Below are positions 20 to 44,510 of a stretch of DNA of 64,000 nucleotides, in pieces. The stretch is taken from contig DIAS01000126.1 of assembly GCA_002415855.1 (NCBI GenBank), positions 26,981-90,980 on the forward strand, read 5' to 3'. The stretch's first letter is position 1. Every line of letters begins with the position of its first letter. A program made the translations under genes and the position numbers. The notes below the pieces were generated by a model. The model was not told where the DNA came from. It saw nothing but the letters and a program-made list of their open reading frames with translations, and ran no database searches. Source of the DNA: Bacteroidales bacterium UBA5072 (GTDB taxonomy: Bacteria; Bacteroidota; Bacteroidia; Bacteroidales; UBA10428).

Positions 20-3000
20 ATGATGCACACTTTCAGCAAATACACATTGCTTACCTGTTTCCTTTACGGGATGTTCTTTGGCATAAGGACTGCAAGTCCT
101 CAAAACCAGAACCTGGTATTCAGGCACCTGTCCACTGAAGATGGATTGTCACAAAGTACCGTCCATGCCATTTACCAGGACCGGATGGGATTCATGTGGT
201 TTGGTACCAACATTGGGCTGGATAAATATGATGGTGTCACTTTCACGGGTTATCAATATAATGTAACTGATTCTATGACCCTTGCATCAAACTTTGTTGT
301 CGAAATATTCGAGGACAGCTATGGAACATTCTGGATTGGCAACGGCTATGCTGGTTTGAACCGATTTGACAGGGAAAAAGAGCTATTCTACAGGTATAGC
401 TATACGCCAGGTAAGCCGGGATGTATCAGCAACAACAATATCAGGGCTATTTTTGAAGATTCCAGGAAAAACCTCTGGATCGGAACAGCAGGCGGAGGGC
501 TGAATCTATATGACCGGGAGTCGGATTCCTTTATTCACTTCCGTCATGACTCGCTCAGTTCCTCAGATATAGGCACCAACTTTATTTCCTCCATTATCGA
601 AGACAAGAATGGTTATTTATGGTTTGGTTCCCAGGAGGGAATTCTGGTAAAGTATGATCCGCAAAGAAGGATAGGAAAGAGTTTTAAGCTCTTCAGTGAT
701 TATAGGGCCGACCTTTATAACACGACCTTCAGCCAGCTTTATATCGATTCGGAGAACGATATCTGGTTCGGGACCGAGAACGGACTTTATGTTTATGATC
801 AGGAAAAAGAAACCTTTCAGCATTTTGTCAAAGGGAATACCAACAAGAGTTTAAATGCAAATATGGTTGCTTCTGTATTGGAAGTGGAAAAGGGATTGTA
901 CCTCATTACCACGGACCATGGAGGAATGAACATTTATGATAAAAAATCGGGTACATTTAAATACCTGGTAAGTTCCAAACTTGACGAATCCTCATTGAGC
1001 AACAACCAGCTCTATTCTATCTACAGGTCTGCCGACGGCATAATCTGGATCGGAAGTTTTCAGGGCGGCATAAATATACTGGATGAAAATGCCAACAGGT
1101 TTCAGCAGTATAAAAACCTGGTTGATCCGTCTGAATTTCTAAACAGCAGGAATTCTGTGCTGACGATCTGCGATGACAAGGACAAAAACATCTGGATAGG
1201 AACAGACGGGCAGGGGATTGACATCATTGATCCAAAAACATTCCAGGTCCGGCGATTATCTGCCGGCAGGAATAACCCCAATTCCATTTTGGGTAACAGC
1301 GTTACGGAGATATACAGGGACAGGAATAACGATTTGTGGATCGGTACATACCTGCAGGGATTATCGAGATTAGACTGGAATACGAAACAAATGACGTATT
1401 ACCGGAATGATCTCAGGAATTCCAAAAGTATTGGAGGGAATAATGTGTGGACCATTCTTGAAGATGATGAAGGCATGCTGTGGATCGGTACCATGGGGAA
1501 TGGACTGGACAGATTGGACAGAAAAAGCAATGTTTTCACTCATTTTACAAACAATCCGAATGATCCGGAAAGCCTGAGCAACAATGATGTTTTCAAGGTT
1601 TTCCAGGACAAGGCCGGCCAAATATGGGCAGGTACAAGGAATGGCTTATGCCTGCTTGATAAGAAAAAAGGCAAGTTTACCCGGTTCATGCCCGATCATG
1701 ACAGAGAAAGCGGAATCTTCGGCGGATGGATCTATGATATCTTCCAGGACAGGTTGGGCAACCTTTGGATCGGAACCGATCAGGGTCTTAACCGCTACCA
1801 TCCTGAGGACAGTACCTTCGAACACTACCAGGCTAAAGATGGCATGAGTGGCAGTGCGGTGCTGACCATCACCTGCGATGCCGGCAATAATTTATGGATG
1901 GCAACCAATAAAGGGCTTTGCCGCTTCAATTACAGCCTGAAAGAGTTCCGCAATTTCAGTGTGGCCGGTGGCCAGCAGAGTAATGAATTTAACTATACTG
2001 CCGTCTTTTGCAGTTCGGATGGAATGATGTATTTTGGGGGTAAAACCGGTTTCGTTGTTTTTCATCCGGATAGTATCCGGGATATCCAGCGGATACCTCC
2101 GGTGTATTTTACACGTATTGCTGTAATGAATCAGCCTGTGGGACCTCGCCAAAAGAATTCAGTGCTTACCAAACATATAAATTTCGAAAAAACCATCACC
2201 CTGAAATACAAGCAATCGGTTATTTCACTTGAGTTTGCGGCACTTAACTATTCAAATCCCGAGAAAAACCAATACGCATACTGGCTCGAGGGTTTTGATC
2301 ACGGATGGAATTATATCGGGAACAAGCACGAGGTTACATACACCAACCTTAATCCGGGGAAATACCTGTTAAAGGTAAAAGGATCAAATAATTACAGCAC
2401 CTGGAATGAGGCAGGTACTACCCTGGAAATCATTGTTTTGCCACCCTGGTGGAAATCCTGGTGGTTTCAGGCCCTTTCTTACCTGACCCTTGCGGGATTA
2501 GTCCTCCTGCTTTTTTTACTGCGCATATCTTTTTACAGAAACCAGCAGAAGAAACTGATCGTGCTGGTGAAAGAAAGAACTTTTCAGCTGGAGGAAGTAG
2601 CTGTGACATTGGAAGAAAAACAGGAGGAGATCAATTCGCAGAACGAAGAACTGATGACACAAAGAGATGAACTTGAAAATACCAACAGTATCCTGATCGG
2701 TCAAAAGCAAAGGATACTTGAACAGAACCAGGAACTTGATAAACACCGGAACCAGCTTGAATTGCTGGTTGAGGAACGCACGCATGAATTGATAGAGGCC
2801 AAAGAGAAAGCTGAGGAATCAGACAGGCTCAAGTCATCTTTTCTGGCCAACCTTTCGCACGAGATCAGAACACCGCTGAATGCTATTGTGGGTTTTTCCT
2901 TGTTGCTGGGCGAAAAAAGGACAGACGACGAGGAACGTGATGAATACAACGCTATTATACAGAATAGCAGCAATACCCTTTTGGAACTAATCAGCGATAT

Positions 3001-3961
3001 CCTCGATATTTCCAGGATCGAGGCCGGGCAGTTGGAACTCGATCTTAAGGAAGTATCGCTCGAGGCCGTTATCAGTGACCTGGTGGGAATCTACGACCTG
3101 TTCATGAAACGTGAGGATATCGGCTCCAACAAGCCTGTACATTTCAGGGTAGCCATTGAGGATGTGATCCTGAAAACACAGTTGATCACCGATAAATTAA
3201 GACTTGAGCAGATCCTGTCGAACCTCATCAGCAATGCGATAAAATTTACCAGGGAAGGATATATAGAACTTGGATGCACCAAGGTAACAGGAGAGGAAAT
3301 GTTGGAGTTTTATGTTAAAGATACCGGTATTGGTATCAAGGAGGAGTACCAGCAGATCATATTTGAGCGTTTCAGAAAGGTAGAGGAAGACAAATCGCAC
3401 CTGCAAAGGGGAACAGGACTCGGACTGGCAATAACATCACAACTGGTAACCCTTCTGGGAGGAACAATTCGGGTTTTCTCAAGAGTTGGGGAAGGTTCTG
3501 TTTTTTACTTCACTATTCCCCTGATAAAGGCAGATACACCTTACATTCCAATTCAGAAGCTGAAAATGTCGAATATCGTCCCCGATTTTCTGGGCTGCCG
3601 GATTCTGGTTGCGGAAGATGATCTTTCAAATTTCCACTACATCGAAAAATTGTTGAAAAAGGCACATGCCAGTGTAATTCACGCCGAGAATGGTAAAGAA
3701 GTATTGCAGATTCTTCAGGTAGAACATGATATCCAGCTGATCCTCATGGACATAAAAATGCCGGAGATGGATGGCATTGAGGCCTTAAAGGAGCTGAAGA
3801 AACTGAACATTCAGATTCCGGTGATTGCCCAAACAGCCTATGCTTTAGCAGATGAAGTTGTGAAGCTGAAAAAGGAAGGATTTGCCGACTATATCTCAAA
3901 GCCTATTCAACGGGAACACCTGTATTCCGTTATTGAGAAATTCCTGCATCAGGTCTGTTAA
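20..3961 (+). CDS. Hybrid sensor histidine kinase/response regulator (periplasmic beta-propeller Reg_prop repeats + Y_Y_Y + TM + coiled coil + HisKA + HATPase_c + REC), no AraC output domain
   Basis: Repeated D-x-x-G-x-LWIGT-x-G-x-GL blades; Y_Y_Y 'YAYWLEGFD..W...YTNLNPGKY'; H-box 'FLANLSHEIRTPLNAI'; N/G boxes 'NLISNAIKFT', 'DTGIGI', 'GTGLGLAI'; REC 'ILVAEDD..LILMDIKMPEMDG..KP'. Confidence 0.95.
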   Translation: MMHTFSKYTLLTCFLYGMFFGIRTASPQNQNLVFRHLSTEDGLSQSTVHAIYQDRMGFMWFGTNIGLDKYDGVTFTGYQYNVTDSMTLASNFVVEIFEDSYGTFWIGNGYAGLNRFDREKELFYRYSYTPGKPGCISNNNIRAIFEDSRKNLWIGTAGGGLNLYDRESDSFIHFRHDSLSSSDIGTNFISSIIEDKNGYLWFGSQEGILVKYDPQRRIGKSFKLFSDYRADLYNTTFSQLYIDSENDIWFGTENGLYVYDQEKETFQHFVKGNTNKSLNANMVASVLEVEKGLYLITTDHGGMNIYDKKSGTFKYLVSSKLDESSLSNNQLYSIYRSADGIIWIGSFQGGINILDENANRFQQYKNLVDPSEFLNSRNSVLTICDDKDKNIWIGTDGQGIDIIDPKTFQVRRLSAGRNNPNSILGNSVTEIYRDRNNDLWIGTYLQGLSRLDWNTKQMTYYRNDLRNSKSIGGNNVWTILEDDEGMLWIGTMGNGLDRLDRKSNVFTHFTNNPNDPESLSNNDVFKVFQDKAGQIWAGTRNGLCLLDKKKGKFTRFMPDHDRESGIFGGWIYDIFQDRLGNLWIGTDQGLNRYHPEDSTFEHYQAKDGMSGSAVLTITCDAGNNLWMATNKGLCRFNYSLKEFRNFSVAGGQQSNEFNYTAVFCSSDGMMYFGGKTGFVVFHPDSIRDIQRIPPVYFTRIAVMNQPVGPRQKNSVLTKHINFEKTITLKYKQSVISLEFAALNYSNPEKNQYAYWLEGFDHGWNYIGNKHEVTYTNLNPGKYLLKVKGSNNYSTWNEAGTTLEIIVLPPWWKSWWFQALSYLTLAGLVLLLFLLRISFYRNQQKKLIVLVKERTFQLEEVAVTLEEKQEEINSQNEELMTQRDELENTNSILIGQKQRILEQNQELDKHRNQLELLVEERTHELIEAKEKAEESDRLKSSFLANLSHEIRTPLNAIVGFSLLLGEKRTDDEERDEYNAIIQNSSNTLLELISDILDISRIEAGQLELDLKEVSLEAVISDLVGIYDLFMKREDIGSNKPVHFRVAIEDVILKTQLITDKLRLEQILSNLISNAIKFTREGYIELGCTKVTGEEMLEFYVKDTGIGIKEEYQQIIFERFRKVEEDKSHLQRGTGLGLAITSQLVTLLGGTIRVFSRVGEGSVFYFTIPLIKADTPYIPIQKLKMSNIVPDFLGCRILVAEDDLSNFHYIEKLLKKAHASVIHAENGKEVLQILQVEHDIQLILMDIKMPEMDGIEALKELKKLNIQIPVIAQTAYALADEVVKLKKEGFADYISKPIQREHLYSVIEKFLHQVC

Positions 3962-3966
3962 ATAAA

Positions 3967-3990
3967 AAGAGGCTTTTGATAAAGCCTCTT
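3967..3990. terminator. Bidirectional intrinsic terminator between the hybrid kinase and tRNA-His
   Basis: Perfect 10-bp stem AAGAGGCTTT-tgat-AAAGCCTCTT immediately after the kinase stop, between convergent genes. Confidence 0.75.
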
Positions 3991-3992
3991 CG

Positions 3993-4067
3993 GGTGGATG
4001 ACCGGGCTCGAACCGGCGACCTCCAGAGCCACAATCTGGCGCTCTGACCAACTGAGCTACAACCACC
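3993..4067 (-). tRNA. tRNA-His (GUG), G-1 encoded, CCA not encoded
   Basis: Reverse complement GGTGGTTGTAGCTCAGTTGGTCAGAGCGCCAGATTGTGGCTCTGGAGGTCGCCGGTTCGAGCCCGGTCATCCACC: D-arm AGCTCAGTTGG, anticodon arm CCAGA-TTGTGGC-TCTGG, T-loop GGTTCGA. Confidence 0.97.
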
Positions 4068-4079
4068 ATTTTGGGAGGG

Positions 4080-4087
4080 CAAATTTA
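4080..4087 (-). promoter_or_regulatory. Bacteroidota primary-sigma -7 element for tRNA-His
   Basis: TAAATTTG on the minus strand (consensus TAnnTTTG) 12 nt upstream of the tRNA 5' end. Confidence 0.6.
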
Positions 4088-4229
4088 ATGATCTTTTCAA
4101 GTTTTAAAAATAAAAGACTGAAAAAAAAGATTCATATAACCAGCAACGATTCAGCATTTTAAGATTTTTGTCAGGATTTAGTGTGAAAAAGAGTATTAAT
4201 TTAGGCCACTTTCCAATAAATCAGATGAA

Positions 4230-5699
4230 ATGAGGGATCTTGAAAAATATTTTGGGCCTTTCAGAGAGCAGATCATTGGTAATGATGCTTTCTACGAGTC
4301 CCCCTATGGGAGAAAAAAAATCCACTATTTTGACTGGATTGCAGGGGGTCGTTTGTACAAGCCAATCGAGGACAAGATCACCCGTGTTTTTGGGCCATTT
4401 GTTGCCAATACGCATACTGAAACCTGTGAAGTCGGCACCCGGATGACACTATGCTACCGGTATGCGCATGAATTCATCAAGAAGCATGTAAATGCCGGGC
4501 CCAATGATGTGATTATTACCGCCGGATCCGGAATGACATCAGTGGTGAACAAACTGCAGCGTATCCTGAGTTTGCGTACGACCAATAAACGTATCCGGAA
4601 TGAATGCATGGACATCCACGACCGACCGGTAGTATTTATCACCCACATGGAACATCATTCCAACCAAACATCCTGGTATGAGACCATGGCCGATGTAGTC
4701 ATGATACCTCCAAGCGGGTCCCTGCTGATTGATCCGGAGGCCTTGCGTACTGCGATGAAGGGTTATGCTGACCGGAAATTCAAAATTGGGGCATTCACAG
4801 CCTGTTCCAATGTTACCGGCATTATTACACCCTATCATGAGATGGCCCGTATCATGCATGAGAACCAGGGACTTTGCTTCATTGACTTCGCAGCCTCAGC
4901 ACCCTATGTGGATATAAATATGCATCCGGCAGATCCCCTGCAAAAGCTGGATGCCATCTATTTCTCCCCTCACAAGTTTCTGGGAGGACCCGGGTCATCG
5001 GGTGTGCTGATTTTTGATTCCTCTTTGTACCATTCCGATGTTCCGGATGATCCTGGCGGGGGTACTGTCGATTGGACAAATCCTTGGGGTGAATACAAAT
5101 ACGTAGATGACATTGAATCGCGCGAGGATGGCGGCACCCCTGGTTTCCTTCAGGCCATCAGGGCTGCGCTGGCCCTTGAACTGAAGGAGAAGATGGGGAC
5201 CAGTCAAATCATGCGGCGCGAGGAAGAACTGGTGAGCAAGGCCATGGAAGGTCTGAGAAAAATAAAGGGTATCAACATTCTGGCGGGAAATGCGGAGCAC
5301 CGTCTGGGAATTATTTCCTTCTATCATCAGGACATCCATTTCAACCTGATCGTCAAATTGCTCAGTGACCGGTACGGCATTCAGGTCAGGGGTGGTTGCG
5401 TATGTGCCGGTACTTACGGGCATTTCCTGCTCCAGGTTACTTATGACCGCTCACACGAGATAACGGAAAAGATTAATCATGGTGACCTGTCAGAAAAACC
5501 GGGATGGGTAAGGGTTTCTCTTCACCCCGTAATAACAGATGAAGAATTGCGGTACTTTCTCATGGCTTTAAATGAGATCGTACAAAATCATCAGGAATGG
5601 AAAAAAGATTATATTTATAATCCGAAAAAAAATGAATTCGAGCACTGCTCCGCACCAGGTGTCACGCCCGGATGGTTGCAGGAATGGTTTAAACTGTAA
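4230..5699 (+). CDS. Class V PLP-dependent aminotransferase / cysteine desulfurase-selenocysteine lyase-like protein
   Basis: 'MEHHSN', 'SNVTG', 'DFAASAPY', PLP-Lys motif 'SPHKFLGGPG', 'GGTP', 'RGGCVCAGTYGH'. Confidence 0.9.
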   Translation: MRDLEKYFGPFREQIIGNDAFYESPYGRKKIHYFDWIAGGRLYKPIEDKITRVFGPFVANTHTETCEVGTRMTLCYRYAHEFIKKHVNAGPNDVIITAGSGMTSVVNKLQRILSLRTTNKRIRNECMDIHDRPVVFITHMEHHSNQTSWYETMADVVMIPPSGSLLIDPEALRTAMKGYADRKFKIGAFTACSNVTGIITPYHEMARIMHENQGLCFIDFAASAPYVDINMHPADPLQKLDAIYFSPHKFLGGPGSSGVLIFDSSLYHSDVPDDPGGGTVDWTNPWGEYKYVDDIESREDGGTPGFLQAIRAALALELKEKMGTSQIMRREEELVSKAMEGLRKIKGINILAGNAEHRLGIISFYHQDIHFNLIVKLLSDRYGIQVRGGCVCAGTYGHFLLQVTYDRSHEITEKINHGDLSEKPGWVRVSLHPVITDEELRYFLMALNEIVQNHQEWKKDYIYNPKKNEFEHCSAPGVTPGWLQEWFKL

Positions 5700-5703
5700 T
5701 GGC

Positions 5704-6894
5704 ATGGTACTAATTGAAGTAAATGACAAGCAAACCAGCAGGGAATTCCTGGAAGTTCCAAAGTTTTTGTACAAGGATGATCCGAACTGGACATGTCCGC
5801 TTGATATGGAGATTGAAAATACTTTCAATCCTGCGAGAAATTCATGTTTTAAGCACGGCGATGCCCGGCGCTGGATCATGAAAGACGAGCAGGGTAAACT
5901 GATCGGTAGAATAGCTGCTTTTTTTGATGAGAAAAAGGCAAATCATAATCCGCAACCCACAGGGGGTATTGGTTTCTTCGAGTGCATCAACAATCACGAT
6001 GTCGCTTACAGGTTGTTCAATGTGGCAAAGGAATGGCTGACGCAACAGGGAATGAAGGCCATGGATGGCCCGATTAACTTTGGTGAGAACTTTGTAAACT
6101 GGGGACTGCTGGTTGAAGGTTTCATGCCCCAGGGCTATGGAATGCCTTATAATTTTCCCTACTACAGGGAGATCTTTGAAAGTTATGGTTTTAAAACCTA
6201 TTTTGAGCAATACAGTTTTCATGACAACTTCAGCCGGCCTTATCCTGCTGCCATGCGAGCATTTGGTGAAAGGCTGTGGAAAAAGCCTGAATTCTCCTTC
6301 AGACATATCGAGATGAAAAACGCAGAGAAATACCTGCGTGATCTCGTGGTTATGTACGACAAGGTATGGTCTGACTTTCTGGAGAATTATACCCCGCTTA
6401 AATTTGAAGACCTGAACCAGATCTTTCAGGATGCAAAAGCAATGCTCGATGAGAGATTCATATGGTTTGCCTATCACAACGGCGACCCGGTGGGTTTCCT
6501 CATTGTTTTTCCTGATATCAATCAGGTATTAAGAAAACTTAAAAACGGCAAGCTTAATTTCTGGAATATACTAAAACTGTTGTATTATAAAAAGAAGGCA
6601 GTCACGCGCGGAAGATTGCTGTTATCCGGTGTCATACCTGAATTTCAACGTACGGGCGTGGTTGGGGGGATGTATATTAAGCTAACCGATTCCATGAGGG
6701 CATCCGGCATGGAAGAACTTGAGTTATCGTGGGTTGGTGATTATAATATAACGGTAAATCGTATGTACGGCCAGTTTGGGGCAACCAAGGAAAAAACCCA
6801 TATCACGTACAGGTACCTGTTTGATCCCGATGCTCCCTACCAGAGATTTGCCAACATGAGCAATAAATTCTCAAAAGACAGGAAAAAGGAGTAA
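5704..6894 (+). CDS. Double-GNAT acyltransferase of the YghO/bacterial ceramide synthase (bCerS)-like family
   Basis: 'LYKDDPNW..PL', 'GRIAAF', 'GFFECIN', 'GP..F...GLLVEGF', 'MPYNFPYY', 'GV.PEFQ..G', 'ELSWV...N'. Start moved from 5572 to ATG 5704, 4 nt after the upstream stop. Confidence 0.75.
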   Translation: MVLIEVNDKQTSREFLEVPKFLYKDDPNWTCPLDMEIENTFNPARNSCFKHGDARRWIMKDEQGKLIGRIAAFFDEKKANHNPQPTGGIGFFECINNHDVAYRLFNVAKEWLTQQGMKAMDGPINFGENFVNWGLLVEGFMPQGYGMPYNFPYYREIFESYGFKTYFEQYSFHDNFSRPYPAAMRAFGERLWKKPEFSFRHIEMKNAEKYLRDLVVMYDKVWSDFLENYTPLKFEDLNQIFQDAKAMLDERFIWFAYHNGDPVGFLIVFPDINQVLRKLKNGKLNFWNILKLLYYKKKAVTRGRLLLSGVIPEFQRTGVVGGMYIKLTDSMRASGMEELELSWVGDYNITVNRMYGQFGATKEKTHITYRYLFDPDAPYQRFANMSNKFSKDRKKE

Positions 6895-6900
6895 TTATAT

Positions 6901-6931
6901 TTTGTCGTTAGAAAATGATTACTTATTTTTG
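6901..6931 (+). promoter_or_regulatory. Canonical Bacteroidota sigma promoter for rpmE2
   Basis: TTTG (6901-6904), 19-nt spacer, TATTTTTG (6924-6931). Confidence 0.7.
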
Positions 6932-6968
6932 CAACCCATTTGAAATAGTTTGAATAAAGTATAAAGAG

Positions 6969-7235
6969 ATGAAAAAAGGAATACATCCCGAAACATACAG
7001 GCTGGTGGCCTTCAGGGACATGTCAAACGGTCATACTTTCCTTACCAGATCAACTGCATCGTCAAGAGAAACTGTTACACTTGAGGATGGTATTGAATAT
7101 CCGCTGGTTAAGCTTGAAATTTCCAATACTTCACATCCCTTTTATACAGGTAAGATGAAACTGGTTGATACTGCAGGACGTGTGGATAAGTTCATGAATC
7201 GGTACAAAAGTCATTTCGACAAGAAAAAGAAATAG
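6969..7235 (+). CDS. rpmE2: 50S ribosomal protein L31 type B (Zn-free, no Cys)
   Basis: '[19 protein letters not shown]', '[26 protein letters not shown]'. Confidence 0.97.
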
Positions 7236-7264
7236 TGGAGGTTTTCCTCCTGCGAGCATACAAG

Positions 7265-7300
7265 GCTCCGTTTCATCTGCTGGGAAACGGAGCTTTTTTT
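7265..7300 (+). terminator. Rho-independent terminator after rpmE2
   Basis: GCTCCGTTTC...GAAACGGAGC stem followed by T7. Confidence 0.8.
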
Positions 7301-37813: not shown

Positions 37814-38221
37814 TCAGCGAGCCGCTATCTGATCTTCCCGGTACAGGATATTCCATTCACTGAGCACATTCACGGCATGTTTGACCTCACGCCTGCAGTC
37901 ATCGTCTGACAGATAATACTTTTTGCTGAATGTATCAACAATATATTCTATCCGCTGCTTCCGGAAGGCAGCCATGATAAGATCTGCGTAAAAATCAGTG
38001 AACTGATGCTTGACATCCAAACCTTCCTTGTCCTTGGCAAATACAATTACCTCTCCGTTTGACATCCGCTTGATTTTGCATTCGGGATTGAGTTTGATGC
38101 TGCCCCCGTAAAACGACTTGGGTGAATTCCCGGCTTCTGCGGCCATTACAACTACCATCAGCAACACCAGGATTGCTGAAAGCCGTAAAGGCAGAACTGG
38201 TAAAATGGTCTTGGTCTTCAT
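37814..38221 (-). CDS. Exported hypothetical protein with PqqD/RRE-like winged-helix domain
   Basis: Signal peptide (MKTKT..hydrophobic..AEA) followed by 3 short strands and 'IEYIVDTFSKKYYLSDDDCRREVKHAVNVLSEWNIL', which resembles PqqD helices 2-3. Confidence 0.55.
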   Translation of the reverse strand: MKTKTILPVLPLRLSAILVLLMVVVMAAEAGNSPKSFYGGSIKLNPECKIKRMSNGEVIVFAKDKEGLDVKHQFTDFYADLIMAAFRKQRIEYIVDTFSKKYYLSDDDCRREVKHAVNVLSEWNILYREDQIAAR

Positions 38222-38446
38222 AGAGAGAGATTTTTATACTAACAGAAAAACTACAGGAATGTTTATCTGCCAAAATAAAAACGCTGAAATCAGGGTTTAA
38301 TTGTATATAATAAAAGTGATCAAAGATATAAAACGATGGTTAAAAAATCAATTTTTGTTGATAAAACAGCAAAATTCATACACCAAATTTAAGATGGAAA
38401 AATGTTGCAAATAACCATAAATTGAGATAGATTAAGACGATATTTT

Positions 38447-39751
38447 ATGGGTTACATGAAAGTCGTCATCGTACATTATCATCTTAATCCCGGAGGTGTT
38501 ACAAGGATCATCGGGTCACAGATCAGGGGGCTTCAAACCTTACCCGGAAAAATTGAATTGTGTGTACTGTGCGGAAATGACAGGGGAGAGTCGGATATTC
38601 CGCAAGCTATAATTCAGGTTCATCCCGCATTGGACTATCTGGATTACGCTATGAGTGAAGAAAACTTCCTGGAGGCTGTTCAGGTGATAACCGCAGTATT
38701 AAAAAGAAATCTTACCGGTGAGGCTATTCTACATGTTCATAATGCAAATCTCGGTAAGAATCCTGCTTTGACGCTCGCTGTTTATGAACTGGCAAAGGAA
38801 GGATACCCGGTCATCAATCATAGTCATGATTTTCCGGAAGCAAGGCCCCGAAACATGGAATTGCTCGGGAAATGGATCCCCGAAGCTTCTTTATTGCCGC
38901 TGTCCGAGATCCTGTACCCCCCGTTCCCCGGGTATCATTTCATATCGCTGAATTCCTGTGATTACCGGCAAATTATCGAAAAGGGCATGGATGCATCCCG
39001 GATTCATCTTCTTCCCAACCCGGTTTCCTTTCAGAAGCTTGTGGCACCCTCCGGCAAACACCAGTTAAGAAGGAGGATCTGCAAAGTTCTTGGGTTTGAT
39101 CCATCCCGAAAAATATGCACCTATCCCGTACGCGCCATAGCACGCAAGAATCTGGGTGAGTTTCTGCTTCTTGCTGTTTTATTCAGAAACGAAGCGTCTT
39201 TTACAATAACCCTTCCCCCCAAGAATCCCTTGGAATTGACTGGCTATGAACGGTGGAAAGGAATCTGCCTCCACAATGGGATCGATGTAAAATTTGAGTC
39301 AGGGGTGGTCGTTGACCATGAAGAATTGATCTGTATTTCCGATTTTTGTATAACGACCAGCGCACGCGAAGGATTTGGAATGGTTTATCTCGAACCCTGG
39401 CTTGCAGGAACACCGGTGATCGGGAGAGATCTGCCGTGCGTCACAAATGACCTGATAGCACAAGGGTTAGAATTCCCCAGGCTTTACGGGCATATTCTTA
39501 TTGAAACCCCTGAGGGTATGATAGATTTTAAAGATCTCCCGAAGGACGACCAGGAAATGACAGTAATACAGCTTGCCAGCCAGGAACCGGCCAGGAATAA
39601 GTTACTCAGGAATAATACCTGTTTGACAAATTTCCTGGAGGATATCCCGGCGGAAGTAATATACAGGAACCAGCAAATCGTCGAAAATAAATTCTCACCC
39701 GAAAAATATGGAGCGGAATTACTTGCAATATATCACAAAGTTTCTGAGTGA
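38447..39751 (+). CDS. GT-B (GT4-like) glycosyltransferase
   Basis: 'HYHLNPGGVTRII', 'HVHNANLGKN', 'HSHDFPE', 'YPVRAIARKNLGE', donor-binding 'EGFGMVYLEPW'. Confidence 0.82.
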   Translation: MGYMKVVIVHYHLNPGGVTRIIGSQIRGLQTLPGKIELCVLCGNDRGESDIPQAIIQVHPALDYLDYAMSEENFLEAVQVITAVLKRNLTGEAILHVHNANLGKNPALTLAVYELAKEGYPVINHSHDFPEARPRNMELLGKWIPEASLLPLSEILYPPFPGYHFISLNSCDYRQIIEKGMDASRIHLLPNPVSFQKLVAPSGKHQLRRRICKVLGFDPSRKICTYPVRAIARKNLGEFLLLAVLFRNEASFTITLPPKNPLELTGYERWKGICLHNGIDVKFESGVVVDHEELICISDFCITTSAREGFGMVYLEPWLAGTPVIGRDLPCVTNDLIAQGLEFPRLYGHILIETPEGMIDFKDLPKDDQEMTVIQLASQEPARNKLLRNNTCLTNFLEDIPAEVIYRNQQIVENKFSPEKYGAELLAIYHKVSE

Positions 39752-40628
39752 TTCATCGGAAATGATGCCGGAGCCGACGCTGCTGAAGCCGTTGGTAGAG
39801 CCTGATGGTACTATTAAAGCGGTTGCATTTGATGTTTATGGTACCATCCTGATTTCAGCATCCGGTGATATCGATGAATCGGTAATCTCCGCGGAGAACT
39901 TTAAGGCGGCTTTGGATGCTTCGGGCATTGTGCTTGCTGAAACAGTACTTGAACCGGAGATGTTCTTTACAGAGGTGTTGGAGGAATTCAAGAATTTGAT
40001 CAAAACCTTTCACCAGACAGCGCGATCCGACTGTAAGCCATATCCGGAAATCAACATCCTCGAGATATGGGAGAAGATCATCATGGACAATAACAACAGG
40101 AACAGGCTCATACTCAGTGGTCCCCTGTGCATTAAATGCTTTACCTTTGTTTTTGAGGTACTCAGCAACCGGATCTATCCAATGCCGGGTATGAAAGATG
40201 TAATCAATAACCTGGCAGAGAGGAAATTCCCGCTGGGTCTTATTTCCAACGCGCAGTTTTATACACCCGTTATCCTTAACTTCTTCCTGCATGATACCAT
40301 CACAGAATCCGAACAGGTAGAACCCTTTGATCCCGATCTTACGATTTTCTCCTACCAGCATCAGCGCTCAAAACCCGATGCTGTTCTATTCGAACATTTT
40401 AAAACGCAATGCCGGAATAAATTCGGGATTCATCCCGATGAGATCTTATTCATCGGCAATGATATGCTCAGAGATGTATTCCCGGCCCGGATGGCAGGTT
40501 TTAAGACTGCACTGTTTGCCGGTGACACCAAGTCGCTGAGATTACGTCCTGAACTGTCTGATCTAAAAGGAATTACACCGGATTATGTCATCACCGAATT
40601 ACGTCAACTGTTTAAAATATTACTGTAA
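39708..40628 (+). CDS. HAD-superfamily phosphatase (possible sugar-glycerate-phosphate phosphatase)
   Basis: Motif I 'FDVYGT', II 'LISNAQ', III 'KPD', IV 'FIGNDMLRD'. Confidence 0.88.
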   Translation: MERNYLQYITKFLSDSSEMMPEPTLLKPLVEPDGTIKAVAFDVYGTILISASGDIDESVISAENFKAALDASGIVLAETVLEPEMFFTEVLEEFKNLIKTFHQTARSDCKPYPEINILEIWEKIIMDNNNRNRLILSGPLCIKCFTFVFEVLSNRIYPMPGMKDVINNLAERKFPLGLISNAQFYTPVILNFFLHDTITESEQVEPFDPDLTIFSYQHQRSKPDAVLFEHFKTQCRNKFGIHPDEILFIGNDMLRDVFPARMAGFKTALFAGDTKSLRLRPELSDLKGITPDYVITELRQLFKILL

Positions 40629-42082
40629 TGGACATTTCTCATCTTAACTATGGCATCATCCATTCCCTCATCGGGAAGAATGACGGGGTTTCAATTGTGA
40701 TCGACCAGTCGGTGATTGCTATGGTAAAAAGTCTTGGTATTCAGCTGGGAAATATCCATTTTTTGGCTGCCCATTCCTCACCCCGGTTTAATGCGCAAAC
40801 GCATGATGTTTTCTGGCATAAGAATGAGATACATTCCACCATCATCAGGAACTTCAGCCAGCCAGCTGATAACGGAACACTGGATAAGCTTATTCATGAG
40901 AACGCACTCGTGGCCAAGGACATTATCGCCGAGTTTGTTCAGCGGAACAACATCGACATCATCATTGCCCATAATACTTCACATCCCTACAATTTTATTA
41001 CGGCAGTAGGCCTGGGTTATTATTTTGAATCATTGCGTGAAAACAACATCATCTGGCCAAAAATTCTCGTTTGGTGGCACGATTCATATTTTGAACGCAA
41101 GCAGTTTGAAAATCCAAACCCGGTCATTCAGAAGTACCTGAAATATTTGCCTGGCACATATGTCGACGGCATCGTATTCATCAATTCCACCCAGCCCGAA
41201 CTCGCAAGAAAGGTCTTTAAAAAATACAGCACCAACAGGCTGGATGAGTATTTCAGGGACCGTACCGCAGTGATTCCCAATACGCACGATGTTACCTGGG
41301 ACTGGGAGAAATATAACTGGGAAGGCTATGATTTAAACTATCCCCCGCAGGATATTTACAACAGGTCCTTTTTCAAGAACATCGGCTTGACCGCCATGGT
41401 GGAATCAGCCGGTTTTACCATGAGCGATACGGTTATCCTTTTGCAGCATACACGGATCGTCCCGCGAAAAAAGATTGAATTTGCAGTCGACCTGGCCTTT
41501 GAGCTGGAGAGGAGGTTCCAGAAAGCCGGAAACAGAAAGTGTATAGCCTTACTTGTCAGCGGCCATTCAGGAGACGAACAGGTAAAGTACAAGGAATTCC
41601 TTGCGGAATATTTTGCATTGAAAAAGGAAGAATATTCCGGTTCTCCTGTTTTCCTGGTATTTGGTGAACACAGGATACTCTCGCACCGGGATATCATTGT
41701 GGATAAAAAATATTATGATTTTTTTGAAATACCGGGAATAATTTCTGCGACGGGAGGGATTGGTACCTACTTCAGCCAGGTGGAAGGATTTGGGAATAAC
41801 CTGCTCGAAATGCTGGCAGCGGGGTTACCTGTAGTTATTAACAAGTATCATGTTTTCAGATCGGATCTCGAACCGCTGGGCTTTGAGCTGCCACATGTGG
41901 AAGAGAATATCCTGGATCCGGAGATTATTGAAACAACTTATAAACTTGTCACAGACTACAAATTTCGCAATCAGGTTGTCAGTCACAATCTCAAAATACT
42001 GGATGAGAAGCTTGGCCACAGGGTAATAGCTGAATTGCTTGCTCCGCTTATCAATAATATCTTTACACGCGGGTTGCGATAA
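40628..42082 (+). CDS. GT4 glycosyltransferase, MggA/MggS (mannosylglucosyl(phospho)glycerate synthase)-like
   Basis: N-terminal 'G..DGVS', 'WWHDSYFER', 'LLQHTRIVPRKKIE.AVDL', 'EGFGNNLLE'; start overlaps the HAD stop (TAATG). Confidence 0.7.
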   Translation: MDISHLNYGIIHSLIGKNDGVSIVIDQSVIAMVKSLGIQLGNIHFLAAHSSPRFNAQTHDVFWHKNEIHSTIIRNFSQPADNGTLDKLIHENALVAKDIIAEFVQRNNIDIIIAHNTSHPYNFITAVGLGYYFESLRENNIIWPKILVWWHDSYFERKQFENPNPVIQKYLKYLPGTYVDGIVFINSTQPELARKVFKKYSTNRLDEYFRDRTAVIPNTHDVTWDWEKYNWEGYDLNYPPQDIYNRSFFKNIGLTAMVESAGFTMSDTVILLQHTRIVPRKKIEFAVDLAFELERRFQKAGNRKCIALLVSGHSGDEQVKYKEFLAEYFALKKEEYSGSPVFLVFGEHRILSHRDIIVDKKYYDFFEIPGIISATGGIGTYFSQVEGFGNNLLEMLAAGLPVVINKYHVFRSDLEPLGFELPHVEENILDPEIIETTYKLVTDYKFRNQVVSHNLKILDEKLGHRVIAELLAPLINNIFTRGLR

Positions 42083-42094
42083 CATTTGACCGGT

Positions 42095-43825
42095 ATGGAA
42101 GATGCAGCAAAGTACGGACAGCAGCACGCGGATATGGCGGAATTTGCAGGTATGATCGCAAGGCATTTACAGGGTATTTATAAAACCGGGTTTAGTGAAG
42201 GACTGGTAAACCGGATACTGAAGCTTGCAGACCAGCGGCATGAGGCAAAACCACTTTGGAATGAGCGCGAAATGGTATTGATCACTTACGGCAACGGAAT
42301 TGTCATGCCTGACAGGAAACCACTGCAGATTCTCCTGGACTTTCTTCGTGAAAGGCTGGCGGGGAAAATTACATGCGTCCATATTCTGCCATTCTTCCCT
42401 TATACCTCCGATGACGGATTTTCGGTAAGCGATTACATGAATGTTGATCCGGCGCTGGGCAGCTGGGCTGATATAACAGCCATTGGAGCTGAATTTGGTC
42501 TGATGACCGACCTCGTCATAAATCATGTATCAGCCAGCCACCCCTGGTTCAAAAACTACCTGGCAGGCAAAGACCCCGGGAAGGACTTTTTTATAGAATC
42601 AGAGCCTGACACTGATTACAGCCAGGTGGTCAGGCCCCGAAGCACGCCCTTGTTTACCGGGTTTGAATCACCCAGGGGGACGAAGAAAGTATGGACCACG
42701 TTCAGCAATGATCAGGTTGACCTGAACTTCTCAAACCCGGAGGTCCTGATTGAAATGATCAGGATTTTGCTGTTTTATGTAAGCAAGGGAGTACGCATCA
42801 TTCGCCTCGATGCCATTGCCTTTCTCTGGAAGGAGAGAGGAACAACCTGTCTGCACCTGCCTGAGACCCATGCGATTGTAAAGCTTTTGCGGGATGTTGT
42901 TTCTTATGTGAGCCCCGGCACCATAATCCTGACGGAGACAAATGTGCCGAATACGGAAAACTGGAGCTATTTTGGCAATGCCGACGAAGCCCACATGGTT
43001 TACCAGTTCAGCCTGCCGCCCTTGCTGCTGCATGCTTTGTTTACCGGCAACTCAGAGCACCTGAACCAATGGGCAGGCAGCATACCCGAACTCAATGCGA
43101 ACCAGACCTTTCTGAATTACACCGCATCTCATGACGGCATTGGCATCAGACCACTTGAAGGGTTGCTGCCGGACCGTGAGATCCTGCAATTGCTTGAAGC
43201 CATGTCAGCTTTCGGAGGGATGGTCAGTTACAGGAGTAATCCTGATGGATCTCAGAGTCCTTACGAGATTAACATCACCTTTTTAGACGCCATGAAGGGC
43301 GATATAAACGGGCCGGATGAGTTCCAGGAAGCAAGGTTCATCTGTTCACAAACGATCATGATGTCCCTGAAGGGAATACCCGCGTTCTATTTCAATAGTC
43401 TCACAGGTACTGCAAACGATCATGAAGGTGTCAGGGCAACAGGAAGAGCCCGCAGCATTAACCGCAAGCAGTGGCGTGCGGATGAACTTGTGTCACTTTT
43501 GTCAACTGATACCATGCACAGCAGGATATTTAAGGAGCTGATTCGTCTTGTCGGGATTAGACAGGGCTGTTCTGCATTTCACCCCGGAAGCAGGCAGGAG
43601 GTGCTGCCGCTTGGTGAACAGGTGGTTGCTTTTAAGAGGTTCAACACAGCAACAGGTGACAGTATCATTTGTATTTCCAATCTTGCAGTGAGGCAAGTGG
43701 ATATTCAAACATCGTTGGTACGGATAAAAAATGGATACGATCTGATATCCTGCCGGAATTTGCAGCAACAATCAGATCGTATCCGAATAAATGCCTTTCA
43801 GACTTTATGGATTGCTGAAAGTTAA
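42095..43825 (+). CDS. GH13_18 phosphorylase, glucosylglycerate phosphorylase (YcjM-type)
   Basis: 'LITYG', 'HILPFFPYTSDDGF', 'DLVINH', nucleophile 'RLDAIAFLWK', acid/base 'TETNVP', 'ASHDGIG', 'YEINIT'. An alternative TTG start lies at 42086. Confidence 0.85.
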   Translation: MEDAAKYGQQHADMAEFAGMIARHLQGIYKTGFSEGLVNRILKLADQRHEAKPLWNEREMVLITYGNGIVMPDRKPLQILLDFLRERLAGKITCVHILPFFPYTSDDGFSVSDYMNVDPALGSWADITAIGAEFGLMTDLVINHVSASHPWFKNYLAGKDPGKDFFIESEPDTDYSQVVRPRSTPLFTGFESPRGTKKVWTTFSNDQVDLNFSNPEVLIEMIRILLFYVSKGVRIIRLDAIAFLWKERGTTCLHLPETHAIVKLLRDVVSYVSPGTIILTETNVPNTENWSYFGNADEAHMVYQFSLPPLLLHALFTGNSEHLNQWAGSIPELNANQTFLNYTASHDGIGIRPLEGLLPDREILQLLEAMSAFGGMVSYRSNPDGSQSPYEINITFLDAMKGDINGPDEFQEARFICSQTIMMSLKGIPAFYFNSLTGTANDHEGVRATGRARSINRKQWRADELVSLLSTDTMHSRIFKELIRLVGIRQGCSAFHPGSRQEVLPLGEQVVAFKRFNTATGDSIICISNLAVRQVDIQTSLVRIKNGYDLISCRNLQQQSDRIRINAFQTLWIAES

Positions 43826-43843: not shown

Positions 43844-44356
43844 TTAGTTCTTATAAGCCATATCCTGCAGGGATTTGCTGACAATCAGGTTGTATTTCTC
43901 AGCATTGCCTGTGTTCATTACAAACCTCAGTTTATCCTGTTCCATAAAGAAATCTATGGCAGAACCCGAATTGATCATGCCTTTTCTTTCTGTAATAATG
44001 AGACTGTTTGATCCCTGAAGCTTGCTGATCACTTCGTTCAACCGTGAAATTTTACCATCACCGACAAAAACAATATGGCAACGTGAAACACTCTGAGGAT
44101 CATCGAATTTCTTAACAATGATGGGTTGAGATCCAACTTTTTTATTGGCCACAAAGGCAATTAGGCTGTTATAGATCTCATTGTCACCTACCACACCAAT
44201 AATAAATTCGCCGGAAGAACTTCCTGCGGGCCACTGGATAAGGCGTGAGAAATTGTAAATGAACATGGTCTGTGCCTGGCTGACACTGCTGACCTGGGAA
44301 TGCCCGAATCCAACGCTCAGCAGAATCAATGCGATAAGTAAAACTCCTTTCTTCAT
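43844..44356 (-). CDS. YfiR-family (DUF4154-like) periplasmic protein
   Basis: Signal peptide, 'FIYNFSRLIQWP', 'IGVVG', 'CHIVFV', 'LIITE', 'I.F....KLRF.MN...A'. Start set at MKKGVLL (44356). Confidence 0.8.
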   Translation of the reverse strand: MKKGVLLIALILLSVGFGHSQVSSVSQAQTMFIYNFSRLIQWPAGSSSGEFIIGVVGDNEIYNSLIAFVANKKVGSQPIIVKKFDDPQSVSRCHIVFVGDGKISRLNEVISKLQGSNSLIITERKGMINSGSAIDFFMEQDKLRFVMNTGNAEKYNLIVSKSLQDMAYKN

Positions 44357-44510
44357 CAATATTTGATTTAGTTTTCCTATTTTACGGTATAATGCGGAAA
44401 AGGTTCTCAACACTGTATAATAAAAAAAGGTGATATACATCACCTTTTGAAAAAAGTTGAATAAAACCTCAACTGGCTATGTCTTTTAGGCCAATAAAAA
44501 AAGGGATATT

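Follow-up and report, generated by a model that had tools for sequence, protein, structure and literature searches.

The operon described here lies in a 64,000-nucleotide stretch of a Bacteroidales genome (Bacteroidales bacterium UBA5072, contig DIAS01000126.1; hereafter the window) and encodes two glycosyltransferases (GT#1 and GT#2), a HAD-superfamily hydrolase and a GH13_18 phosphorylase. [quoted passage not shown] A preliminary description proposed a GpgS-less glycerate-glycoside pathway and knew of no characterised example in Bacteroidota; our literature search likewise found no report of such a system in Bacteroidota.

Re-reading of the open reading frames and their junctions confirmed four co-oriented, tightly coupled genes (Table 1). 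The stop codon of GT#1 (TGA, 39749–39751) lies downstream of the HAD start codon (ATG, 39708), resulting in a 44-nt overlap; the HAD and GT#2 genes meet in the sequence TAATG (40626–40630); and the GT#2 stop codon (TAA, 42080–42082) precedes the GH13_18 start by 3 nt (TTG, 42086) or 12 nt (ATG, 42095). Since the flanking genes on both sides (37814–38221 and 43844–44443) are located on the opposite strand, the limits of the operon are clear. Between position 38221, where the preceding minus-strand gene ends, and the start of GT#1, the sequence is AT-rich, as previously described, with a GC content of 0.335 versus about 0.45 in the surroundings. A single σ70-like match within this region (38284–38311) was not above chance expectation, and a Bacteroidetes-type promoter was not established there. 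Given that GT#1 homologues are 431 aa long, the true start of GT#1 is probably 38456 rather than 38447.

Table 1. Coordinates of the operon and its upstream region (numbering of the window)
Feature	Position	Strand	Remarks
GT#1	38447..39751	+	434 aa ORF; likely true start 38456
HAD-superfamily hydrolase	39708..40628	+	306 aa ORF
GT#2	40628..42082	+	484 aa ORF
GH13_18 GGaP (predicted)	42086..43825	+	579 aa ORF, TTG start; alternative ATG at 42095
AT-rich divergent intergenic region	38222..38446	.	presumed operon promoter region

The operon is real and conserved. In a synteny survey of 80 related loci, as the preliminary description had suggested, the order GT1-HAD-GT2 was kept in 71, and the frames of GT1 and HAD overlapped by 29–44 nt in all 63 loci in which this could be measured, indicating that the arrangement is not due to chance. 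Wider gene content was compared in 45 long loci. All of them contain the HAD gene and both paralogous glycosyltransferases, and their conserved content consists of pathway genes only, with no conserved methyltransferase, acyltransferase, flippase, membrane, export or polymerase genes. The GT#2 family occurs in 231 GTDB species genomes; the best 80 of these 231 carriers are Bacteroidales by title, except for one 'Clostridia' and one 'bacterium'. Cultured carriers include Draconibacterium orientale and Maribellus sediminis, which makes the pathway proposed below open to experiment.

The GH13_18 protein contains an alpha-amylase domain above the Pfam cut-off and aligns through residues 24–576 with E. 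coli YcjM (43% identity, 460 bits), annotated and characterised as a glucosylglycerate phosphorylase (GGaP). The catalytic RLDA...TETN...SHDG residues are retained in this alignment, in which the stretches IILTETNVP and SPYEIN are matched to IITETNVP and SPYEIN of YcjM. A (T/S)ETN motif and a loop-A Glu, present here in LTETN and PYEIN, respectively, are the diagnostic features of GGaPs (PMC7178133). Thus, the identity to a characterised enzyme and the presence of both diagnostic motifs strongly support the prediction that the GH13_18 protein is a GGaP (EC 2.4.1.352). Known GGaPs include those of E. coli (YcjM), Meiothermus silvanus and Spirochaeta thermophila (Franceus 2017, as reviewed in PMC7178133), and GGaP genes are associated with gpgS and glycerate kinase genes (PMC7178133). 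The protein studied here shares with YcjM-type enzymes the full-length identity, both motifs and this genomic association, but it differs from the known GGaPs in being encoded in an operon with two MggS-like glycosyltransferases and a HAD hydrolase.

It is highly improbable, in our view, that the cluster is unrelated to glycerate and instead makes or remodels a surface polysaccharide or solutes of the sucrose, trehalose or glucosylglycerol type, in which case its GH13 protein would be a phosphorylase of sucrose or glucosylglycerol. The generic GT4 matches of both glycosyltransferases (e.g., LPS galactosyltransferase, VpsD and TreT) would be in line with such a role, as would the sub-threshold matches of the GH13 protein to the sucrose phosphorylase model TIGR03852 (192.8, cut-off 334) and to the TreS N-terminal model. 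Nevertheless, the TETN motif and loop-A Glu are GGaP-specific, and the 460 bits against YcjM contrast with 146–190 bits against the PDB chains of sucrose phosphorylase, glucosylglycerol phosphorylase and SPP. The gpgS and glycerate kinase genes embedded in the clusters of relatives, and the lack of conserved membrane, export or polymerase genes, also argue against it.

The term GpgS-less applies to the operon but not to the genome, since a full-length GpgS homologue (397 aa) is encoded on another contig. This protein matched the Methanococcoides-type model NF040724 with 280.8 bits (model positions 2–396 of 402; equivalog cut-off 700), and no family besides the two GpgS models was matched; the matches to GpgS proteins in the PDB were weak. 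The in-cluster GpgS copies of relatives, which score 343–369 bits with the same model, are separated from it by a very long branch. In 46 of the 80 related loci gpgS is located between GT#2 and the phosphorylase gene, and 23 loci have no in-cluster gpgS. All 21 genomes with the cluster that were examined by way of their loci contain exactly one GpgS homologue. Among 301 sampled Bacteroidales, 21 carry both GT#2 and GpgS, none GT#2 only, two GpgS only and 278 neither (Fisher p = 2e-30). Furthermore, a glycerate kinase gene (PF02595, 503 bits) is found 3–1592 nt downstream of the GH13 gene in 23 loci; in the genome studied here it lies on the operon's own contig, 25 kb away. No homologue of Ggs was identified.

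Pfam GT1/GT4 matches were all sub-threshold for both glycosyltransferases. The sole named relative of GT#2 is NF041101 (mannosylglucosylglycerate synthase, MggS), matched with 64.8 bits over residues 265–424 (model positions 221–368 of 431), mostly in the C-terminal domain. NF041101 was the top family for all 25 diverse GT#2-family members (best E 1.7e-124). NF041101 is the best named family for GT#2, but the score is far from the equivalog cut-off of 640. GT#2 is accordingly classified on sequence grounds as a distant MggS relative and not as an MggS equivalog. The MggA/MggS-type motifs initially ascribed to GT#2 are present (DGVS, TRIVPRKKIE and EGFGN) and are invariant or nearly so throughout its family. 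With 411 representatives in 1.84 billion at E<1e-3, this family is a small one. Residues G20, V21, R280, K281, E386, G387, G389 and N390 are invariant, as is the E-x7-E donor-binding motif (E386...E394). Outside this group, GGaP-like GH13 genes adjoin distant GT#2 homologues at two loci (L112 and L115). The L112 pair is accompanied by a sodium:solute symporter, and its genome (G322) has neither GpgS nor an operon-type HAD. We propose that GT#2 glycosylates non-phosphorylated glucosylglycerate.

These gene pairs also bear on a different division of labour, in which GpgS, GT#1 and HAD alone would be biosynthetic, whereas GT#2 and GGaP, along with glycerate kinase, would be degradative: GT#2 would strip the outer sugar, either as a phosphorylase of the retaining GT4 type or as a transferase working in reverse, and GGaP would then phosphorolyse glucosylglycerate. 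We consider this improbable. Family GT4 does include a retaining trehalose phosphorylase, which speaks for such a role; we know of no phosphorylase in the clade of GT#2, and its invariant E-x7-E motif points the other way. A degradative role would agree with the L112 pair in a genome devoid of GpgS and of the operon-type HAD, with the succession of GGaP and glycerate kinase in 23 loci, and with the R. baltica MggS-like protein, which, like its SPase, showed no activity in published assays (PMC3736172). On the other hand, NF041101 includes a demonstrated Leloir synthase, the Thermotoga maritima homologue, which according to PMC3736172 forms mannosylglucosylglycerate (MGG) from GDP-mannose and glucosylglycerate.

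GT#1 is a divergent retaining-type GT-B enzyme and a remote paralogue of GT#2. Its AlphaFold (AF2) model (pLDDT 92.9) has a GT-B fold whose top Foldseek matches (GlgM, WaaG, HepE, BshA, SPS and MshA) are retaining GT4/GT5 enzymes, and hhalign aligned GT#1 with the GT#2 family over 385 columns (probability 99.15%, E 3.9e-19). NF041101 was matched weakly by 23 of 25 GT#1-family members and by GT#1 itself with 11.5 bits (cut-off 640), as for a distant relative and not an equivalog. No named specific relative of GT#1 was found, the homologue names in JGI being generic. An MggA-like role is proposed for GT#1, which would glycosylate glucosyl-3-phosphoglycerate (GPG); its adjacency to HAD resembles in gene order the mggA-mggB adjacency reported from other bacteria (PMC3736172). 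Pfam, the GT-B model of GT#1 and the YcjM homology thus uphold the families originally assigned to the operon, i.e., two GT-B glycosyltransferases, a HAD protein and a GH13_18 enzyme.

The HAD protein scored above the Pfam cut-offs for Hydrolase, HAD_2 and Hydrolase_like and belongs to a separate, atypical family of C1-cap (subfamily I) proteins with the unusual motif I F-D-V-Y-G-T. Invariant positions in this family are D42, Y44, G45, T46, S180-N181, K222, G250-N251-D252 and D256. They comprise the nucleophile Asp42, S180 of motif II, K222 and the GNDxxxD motif, with Asp+2 replaced by the invariant Tyr. Phosphatases carry Asp+2 as general acid/base within motif I, DxDx(T/V). In fold, the AF2 model (pLDDT 91) comes closest to L-2-haloacid dehalogenases, PH0459 and cis-epoxysuccinate hydrolases, with phosphatases next. 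Both the Tyr at Asp+2 and dehalogenases as the closest folds count against a phosphatase role. No MpgP/GpgP-type HAD-IIB phosphatase was detected in the genome, and apart from the operon HAD no dedicated candidate for a phosphatase was found. We propose that it plays an MggB-like role, dephosphorylating the phosphorylated glycoside.

With no other GpgP/MpgP-type phosphatase in the genome, the HAD protein could equally serve GPG. In that case, GpgS and HAD would make glucosylglycerate, and GT#1 and GT#2 would add one sugar each. This would yield a triglycosyl-glycerate or, with glycerate as the starting unit, an oligosaccharide or a primer for glycolipids, much like the diglucosylglycerate of mycobacterial MGLP; phosphorylase and glycerate kinase would salvage glucosylglycerate. 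We regard this sequential elongation as unlikely. The paralogous pair present in all 45 long loci is more than one extra sugar needs, and glucosylglycerate is known as a primer of larger molecules (PMC3736172; see also PMC4555173); yet the conserved GT#1/HAD frame overlap better fits a glycosyltransferase-then-phosphatase order, the pairing of distant GT#2-like genes with GGaP alone suggests that GT#2 acts directly on glucosylglycerate, and the cluster has no conserved methyltransferase, acyltransferase or flippase.

The core triad of an mggS-like glycosyltransferase, a HAD and a sucrose-phosphorylase-like gene was reported earlier as an operon (mggS-like/mggB/spasE) of Rhodopirellula baltica, which accumulates MGG and in which gpgS and mggA are unlinked (PMC3736172). 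The preliminary description named R. baltica but left out this operon. The R. baltica genes are rb1005 (GpgS), rb5546 (MggA) and rb12347 (MggB) (Cunha 2013, PMC3736172), and a non-phosphorylating route beside the phosphorylating one has been proposed for it (PMC3736172). Together with the gpgS located by the genome search advised earlier, the same gene set is present here: one operon holds genes for an MggS-like glycosyltransferase, a HAD of ~35 kDa and a GH13_18 protein resembling sucrose phosphorylase, with an unlinked gpgS encoding a GpgS of the roughly 400-aa type in both genomes. The HAD and R. baltica MggB are likened by superfamily, size (~35 kDa) and operon partners, not by sequence, and with 65 bits the kinship of GT#2 to MggS is remote. 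Unlike in R. baltica, a second, paralogous glycosyltransferase gene precedes the HAD gene and is predicted to be translationally coupled to it, and most Bacteroidales relatives have an in-cluster gpgS, often with glycerate kinase. In Petrotoga mobilis, MGG is made by two routes, one through GpgS-MggA-MggB and one through Ggs-MggS (Fernandes et al. 2010, cited after PMC3736172), and the logic would be the same here, with a phosphorylated route (GpgS, a glycosyltransferase acting on GPG and a phosphatase) and a direct glycosyltransferase acting on glucosylglycerate. Differences from P. mobilis are the GH13_18 phosphorylase inside the operon, the other type of phosphatase and the lack of an identified Ggs, so that the direct route would have to obtain its glucosylglycerate either through the phosphorylase or by dephosphorylation of GPG.

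GpgS being encoded elsewhere in the genome makes the operon a variant of a known pathway. In summary, the GGaP, the MggS-like GT#2, the co-occurrence with GpgS and the linkage to glycerate kinase identify it as the Bacteroidales version of the R. baltica/P. mobilis MGG gene set, and the glycerate-glycoside pathway first suggested is corroborated by the GGaP clade, NF041101 and the gpgS and glycerate kinase genes in the clusters of relatives. We consider it fairly probable that this conserved gene set makes and recycles a glucosylglycerate-derived, MGG-like cytoplasmic solute. Against this reading stand the inactive MggS-like protein and SPase of R. baltica, the GT#2 and GpgS scores below the equivalog cut-offs, the long branch of GpgS, the generic affiliation of GT#1 and the atypical HAD. 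GpgS, assigned from its full-length HMM match, would form GPG from NDP-glucose and 3-phosphoglycerate; GT#1, whose gene is translationally coupled with that of HAD, may add a second hexose to this phosphorylated intermediate; HAD would remove the 3-phosphate; and GT#2 may glycosylate glucosylglycerate in its non-phosphorylated form. The GH13_18 enzyme would interconvert glucosylglycerate plus Pi and glucose-1-phosphate plus D-glycerate, and glycerate kinase would convert glycerate into phosphoglycerate.

A bolder, rather doubtful proposal is that GT#2 and GGaP form a self-sufficient, GpgS-independent anabolic module, in which the GH13_18 enzyme makes glucosylglycerate from glucose-1-phosphate and D-glycerate, and GT#2 caps and traps the product. 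If true, this would be the first physiological case of a biosynthetic GH13_18 phosphorylase, and the Bacteroidales cluster would provide two full pathways leading to a single diglycosyl-glycerate, the second running through GpgS, GT#1 and the HAD with Tyr in place of Asp+2. GT#1 and GT#2 would then represent new subfamilies within the MggA/MggS superfamily, each specific for its acceptor.

The operon comprises, in order, genes for a first glycosyltransferase (GT#1), a HAD protein, a second glycosyltransferase (GT#2) and a GH13_18 phosphorylase. Reading of the ORFs agreed exactly with the preliminary description, which had placed four co-oriented genes at these positions, and the junctions read from the sequence bore out the tight coupling that it had claimed. 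The GT#1 and HAD reading frames have 44 nt in common, TAATG contains both the stop of HAD and the start of GT#2, and the gap from GT#2 to the GH13 gene measures 3 nt to a TTG start or 12 nt to an ATG. The intergenic region upstream of the operon is AT-rich, as had been noticed, with a measured GC content of 0.335. Since both neighbouring genes lie on the opposite strand, the operon is well delimited. Given that GT#1 homologues are 431 aa long, the true start of GT#1 is probably at position 38456 rather than 38447. Promoter and terminator scans of the operon region returned no matches above chance, and no RNA sequencing run matched the locus; the DNA runs matching it are soil and wetland metagenomes. 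A convergent gene encoding a DUF4154 YfiR/HmsC-like protein ends 18 nt past the GH13 stop and is kept in close relatives only.

Features of the operon, of its own genome and of the distant loci considered here
Feature	Position	Strand	Basis or match
GT#1	38447-39751	+	ORF reading
HAD	39708-40628	+	ORF reading
GT#2	40628-42082	+	ORF reading
GH13 phosphorylase	42086-43825	+	ORF reading
DUF4154 YfiR/HmsC-like gene	43844-44443	-	PF13689, 109.6 bits
GpgS homologue, own genome, contig C3	19153-20343 (L003:1222-2415)	-	NF040724, 280.8 bits
Glycerate kinase homologue, own genome, contig C124	95830-96981	+	
Symporter, GT#2-like and GGaP-like genes, locus L112 (GCA_001799195.1)	2579-7275		
GT#2-like gene and neighbours, locus L121	8001-17485		

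The GH13 protein shares 43% identity (460 bits, residues 24-576) with YcjM of E. coli, which has been characterised as a glucosylglycerate phosphorylase (GGaP), and reaches just 127-190 bits against the solved sucrose, sucrose-6F-phosphate and glucosylglycerol phosphorylases. With the sucrose phosphorylase equivalog model it scored 192.8 bits, under the cut-off of 334. Both sequence marks of GGaPs given in the Franceus/Desmet review, the (T/S)ETN motif and the Glu of loop A, are present in the protein, as LTETN and PYEIN, respectively. These sequence comparisons argue strongly that the GH13 enzyme is a GGaP.

The only specific named relative of GT#2 was the NCBIfam model NF041101 (mannosylglucosylglycerate synthase), which it matched at 64.8 bits (cut-off 640) and which was also the best match for 25 of 25 diverse members of the GT#2 family. 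The motifs DGVS, TRIVPRKKIE and EGFGN, to which attention had been drawn at the outset, proved invariant or nearly so in this family. The family is small (411 representatives at E<1e-3 among 1.84 billion proteins), and a PDB sequence search returned no match with the single GT#2 sequence and one marginal match with its profile. GT#1 gave generic GT4 matches only, all below threshold, and the source names of its homologues are generic ("glycosyltransferase involved in cell wall biosynthesis"). In a profile-profile comparison, the GT#1 and GT#2 families aligned over 385 columns (probability 99.15%, E 3.9e-19) with N-terminal motifs in common, and they are far nearer each other than either is to any PDB GT4 (about 1e-4); judged from these profiles, GT#1 is a remote paralogue of GT#2. 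The AlphaFold model of GT#1 (pLDDT 92.9) has a GT-B fold whose nearest structures are retaining GT4/GT5 enzymes, with GlgM, BshA, MshA and sucrose-phosphate synthase, and also WaaG and HepE, among the top matches. The first four of these act on small acceptors. A less likely alternative to action on separate acceptors is that the two glycosyltransferases work in sequence and extend the product into a longer glycoside or a primer.

Outside the group, the gene neighbourhoods of nine distantly related GT#2-like representatives were inspected; most of their contigs were too short or had no partners, and no operon-type HAD was found beside any of the nine. Distant GT#2-like genes (31-42% identity) adjoin GGaP-like genes on two contigs. 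[quoted passage not shown] One of the less likely explanations is that GT#2 and GGaP form a degradative pair. At loci L121/L122, one distant GT#2-like gene (31% identity) lies beside an MGH1-like (mannosylglycerate-hydrolase-like) GH63 gene, a GT5 glycogen-synthase-like gene, a GH57 gene and genes for a PHP protein and an APH-fold kinase, and this set may represent a different glycoside module.

The HAD protein has a bona fide HAD fold according to Pfam. In its family, motif I (residues 41-54 region) reads as an invariant F-D-[VI]-Y-G-T followed by S-x-S-G-D, with a Tyr at the Asp+2 general acid/base position of phosphatases, as in L-2-haloacid dehalogenases, and motif IV (GNDxxxD) resembles that of Mg-dependent phosphatases. 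In fold, the AlphaFold model (pLDDT 91) most resembles dehalogenases and cis-epoxysuccinate hydrolases and, after them, phosphatases, and the source names of the homologues are generic ("putative hydrolase of the HAD superfamily"). No MpgP/GpgP-type HAD-IIB phosphatase was found in the window's genome, so the operon HAD is the sole dedicated candidate found.

When a single genome of each GTDB species was scanned for GT#2, relatives turned up in 231 genomes. The best 80 of these 231 are all Bacteroidales by title, except for two oddly labelled MAGs, and include the cultured carriers Draconibacterium orientale, D. aestuarii, D. mangrovi and Maribellus sediminis. When the synteny of the best 80 loci was mapped by tblastn, the order GT#1-HAD-GT#2 was present in 71. 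A gpgS gene separated GT#2 from the GH13 gene in 46 loci, and GT#2 directly adjoined the GH13 gene, as in the window, in 23. The frame overlap between GT#1 and HAD recurred in 63 of 63 measurable loci, and the four or five cluster genes are the only ones conserved across 45 long loci. One locus in a MAG titled 'Clostridia bacterium' (SABY01000038.1) holds a complete Bacteroidales-type five-gene cluster whose GpgS is nested among Lentimicrobiaceae; the contig was probably mis-binned or the MAG mislabelled, rather than the cluster transferred across phyla.

In 23 loci, a glycerate kinase gene (PF02595, 503 bits) follows 3-1592 nt downstream of the phosphorylase. The window's own genome encodes a homologue on the same contig as the operon, some 25 kb further downstream and outside the window, which is 54% identical to the copy placed directly after the phosphorylase in 23 related loci. 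Like the GGaPs of the Franceus/Desmet review, whose discovery followed from association with gpgS and glycerate kinase, the Bacteroidales cluster is associated with both genes. Of 301 evenly sampled Bacteroidales genomes, 21 had GT#2 and 23 had GpgS, and all 21 GT#2 genomes carried GpgS (Fisher p = 2e-30). Among the explanations considered, the least likely is one in which glycerate plays no part in the pathway. The predicted carriers, which come chiefly from sediments, wetlands and marine settings, make up about 7% of the Bacteroidales species sampled; GT#2 was found in 0 of 400 other Bacteroidota genomes that were sampled separately and evenly across the phylum.

The system had been proposed to be GpgS-less, which holds for the operon itself but not for the genome or the pathway. 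A gpgS search of the 4.5-Mb assembly (195 contigs, 92.6% complete) revealed a GpgS homologue of 397 aa outside the window, on contig C3, which matched NF040724 (Methanococcoides-type GpgS) over its full length, under the strict cut-off of 700 bits. It had no other family match and weak matches to solved GpgS structures. All 18 of the 18 tested genomes in which GT#2 directly adjoins the GH13 gene encode a single GpgS, which is unlinked and shares 62-90% identity with the C3 copy, and genomes with gpgS between GT#2 and GH13 have the in-cluster copy only. In the GpgS tree, the unlinked and in-cluster groups are each tight internally, and about 4.8 substitutions per site separate the C3 copy and its 18 clade-mates from the in-cluster copies of other Bacteroidales. 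A simple translocation of gpgS was rejected in view of this very long branch; the unlinked gene could be the product of relocation with rapid divergence or of replacement by a different GpgS lineage. Separately, an uncultured Draconibacterium MAG (OY781113.1) keeps GT#1-HAD-GT#2 with gpgS and GH13 absent locally. Its GpgS, of the in-cluster type, is encoded at a distance of about 300 kb, and the cluster seems to have broken up independently there.

The architecture is not without precedent. Rhodopirellula baltica possesses an operon-like set of an mggS homologue, mggB (HAD) and a sucrose-phosphorylase-like gene, with gpgS and mggA unlinked (Cunha et al. 2013, PMC3736172). A non-phosphorylating route via the phosphorylase and MggS was proposed there, and activity of the MggS homologue and the phosphorylase could not be shown (PMC3736172). 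The likeness lies in the triad of mggS-like GT, HAD and GH13 genes, with HAD and GT#1 as candidate counterparts of MggB and MggA. In contrast to R. baltica, the Bacteroidales cluster has an additional paralogous GT, and gpgS and glycerate kinase are added to it, ancestrally or in most relatives. As for Bacteroidota, the literature searched contained no report of glucosylglycerate or mannosylglucosylglycerate (MGG), in agreement with the preliminary description.

The reading as a glycerate-glycoside pathway stands, and the best-supported view is that the cluster would both make and recycle an MGG-like solute derived from glucosylglycerate. GpgS would make glucosyl-3-phosphoglycerate, GT#1 would glycosylate this phosphorylated intermediate, and the HAD protein would dephosphorylate the product. 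GT#2 would glycosylate free glucosylglycerate, which GGaP and glycerate kinase would link to glucose-1-phosphate and phosphoglycerate. The family assignments of GGaP and GpgS are the only ones that rest on direct sequence tests; we infer which acceptor each GT takes, that the HAD protein acts as a phosphatase, what the sugars are and which way GGaP runs.

Glycerate-based glycosides such as glucosylglycerate and MGG are rare solutes, known from a few thermophiles, planctomycetes, cyanobacteria and actinobacteria. The cluster predicts such a solute in Bacteroidales, which extends known biology rather than introducing a new principle, and the existence of cultured carriers makes the prediction directly testable. 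It likewise gives a way into three enzyme families that are uncharacterised, namely GT#1, GT#2 together with the R. baltica-type "MggS-like" proteins, and the HAD without Asp+2. The interest of the finding is moderate and has three grounds: it would extend glycerate glycosides to Bacteroidales, it brings in these three families, and cultured relatives are available for tests. It could also help to settle the in vivo role of GGaP.
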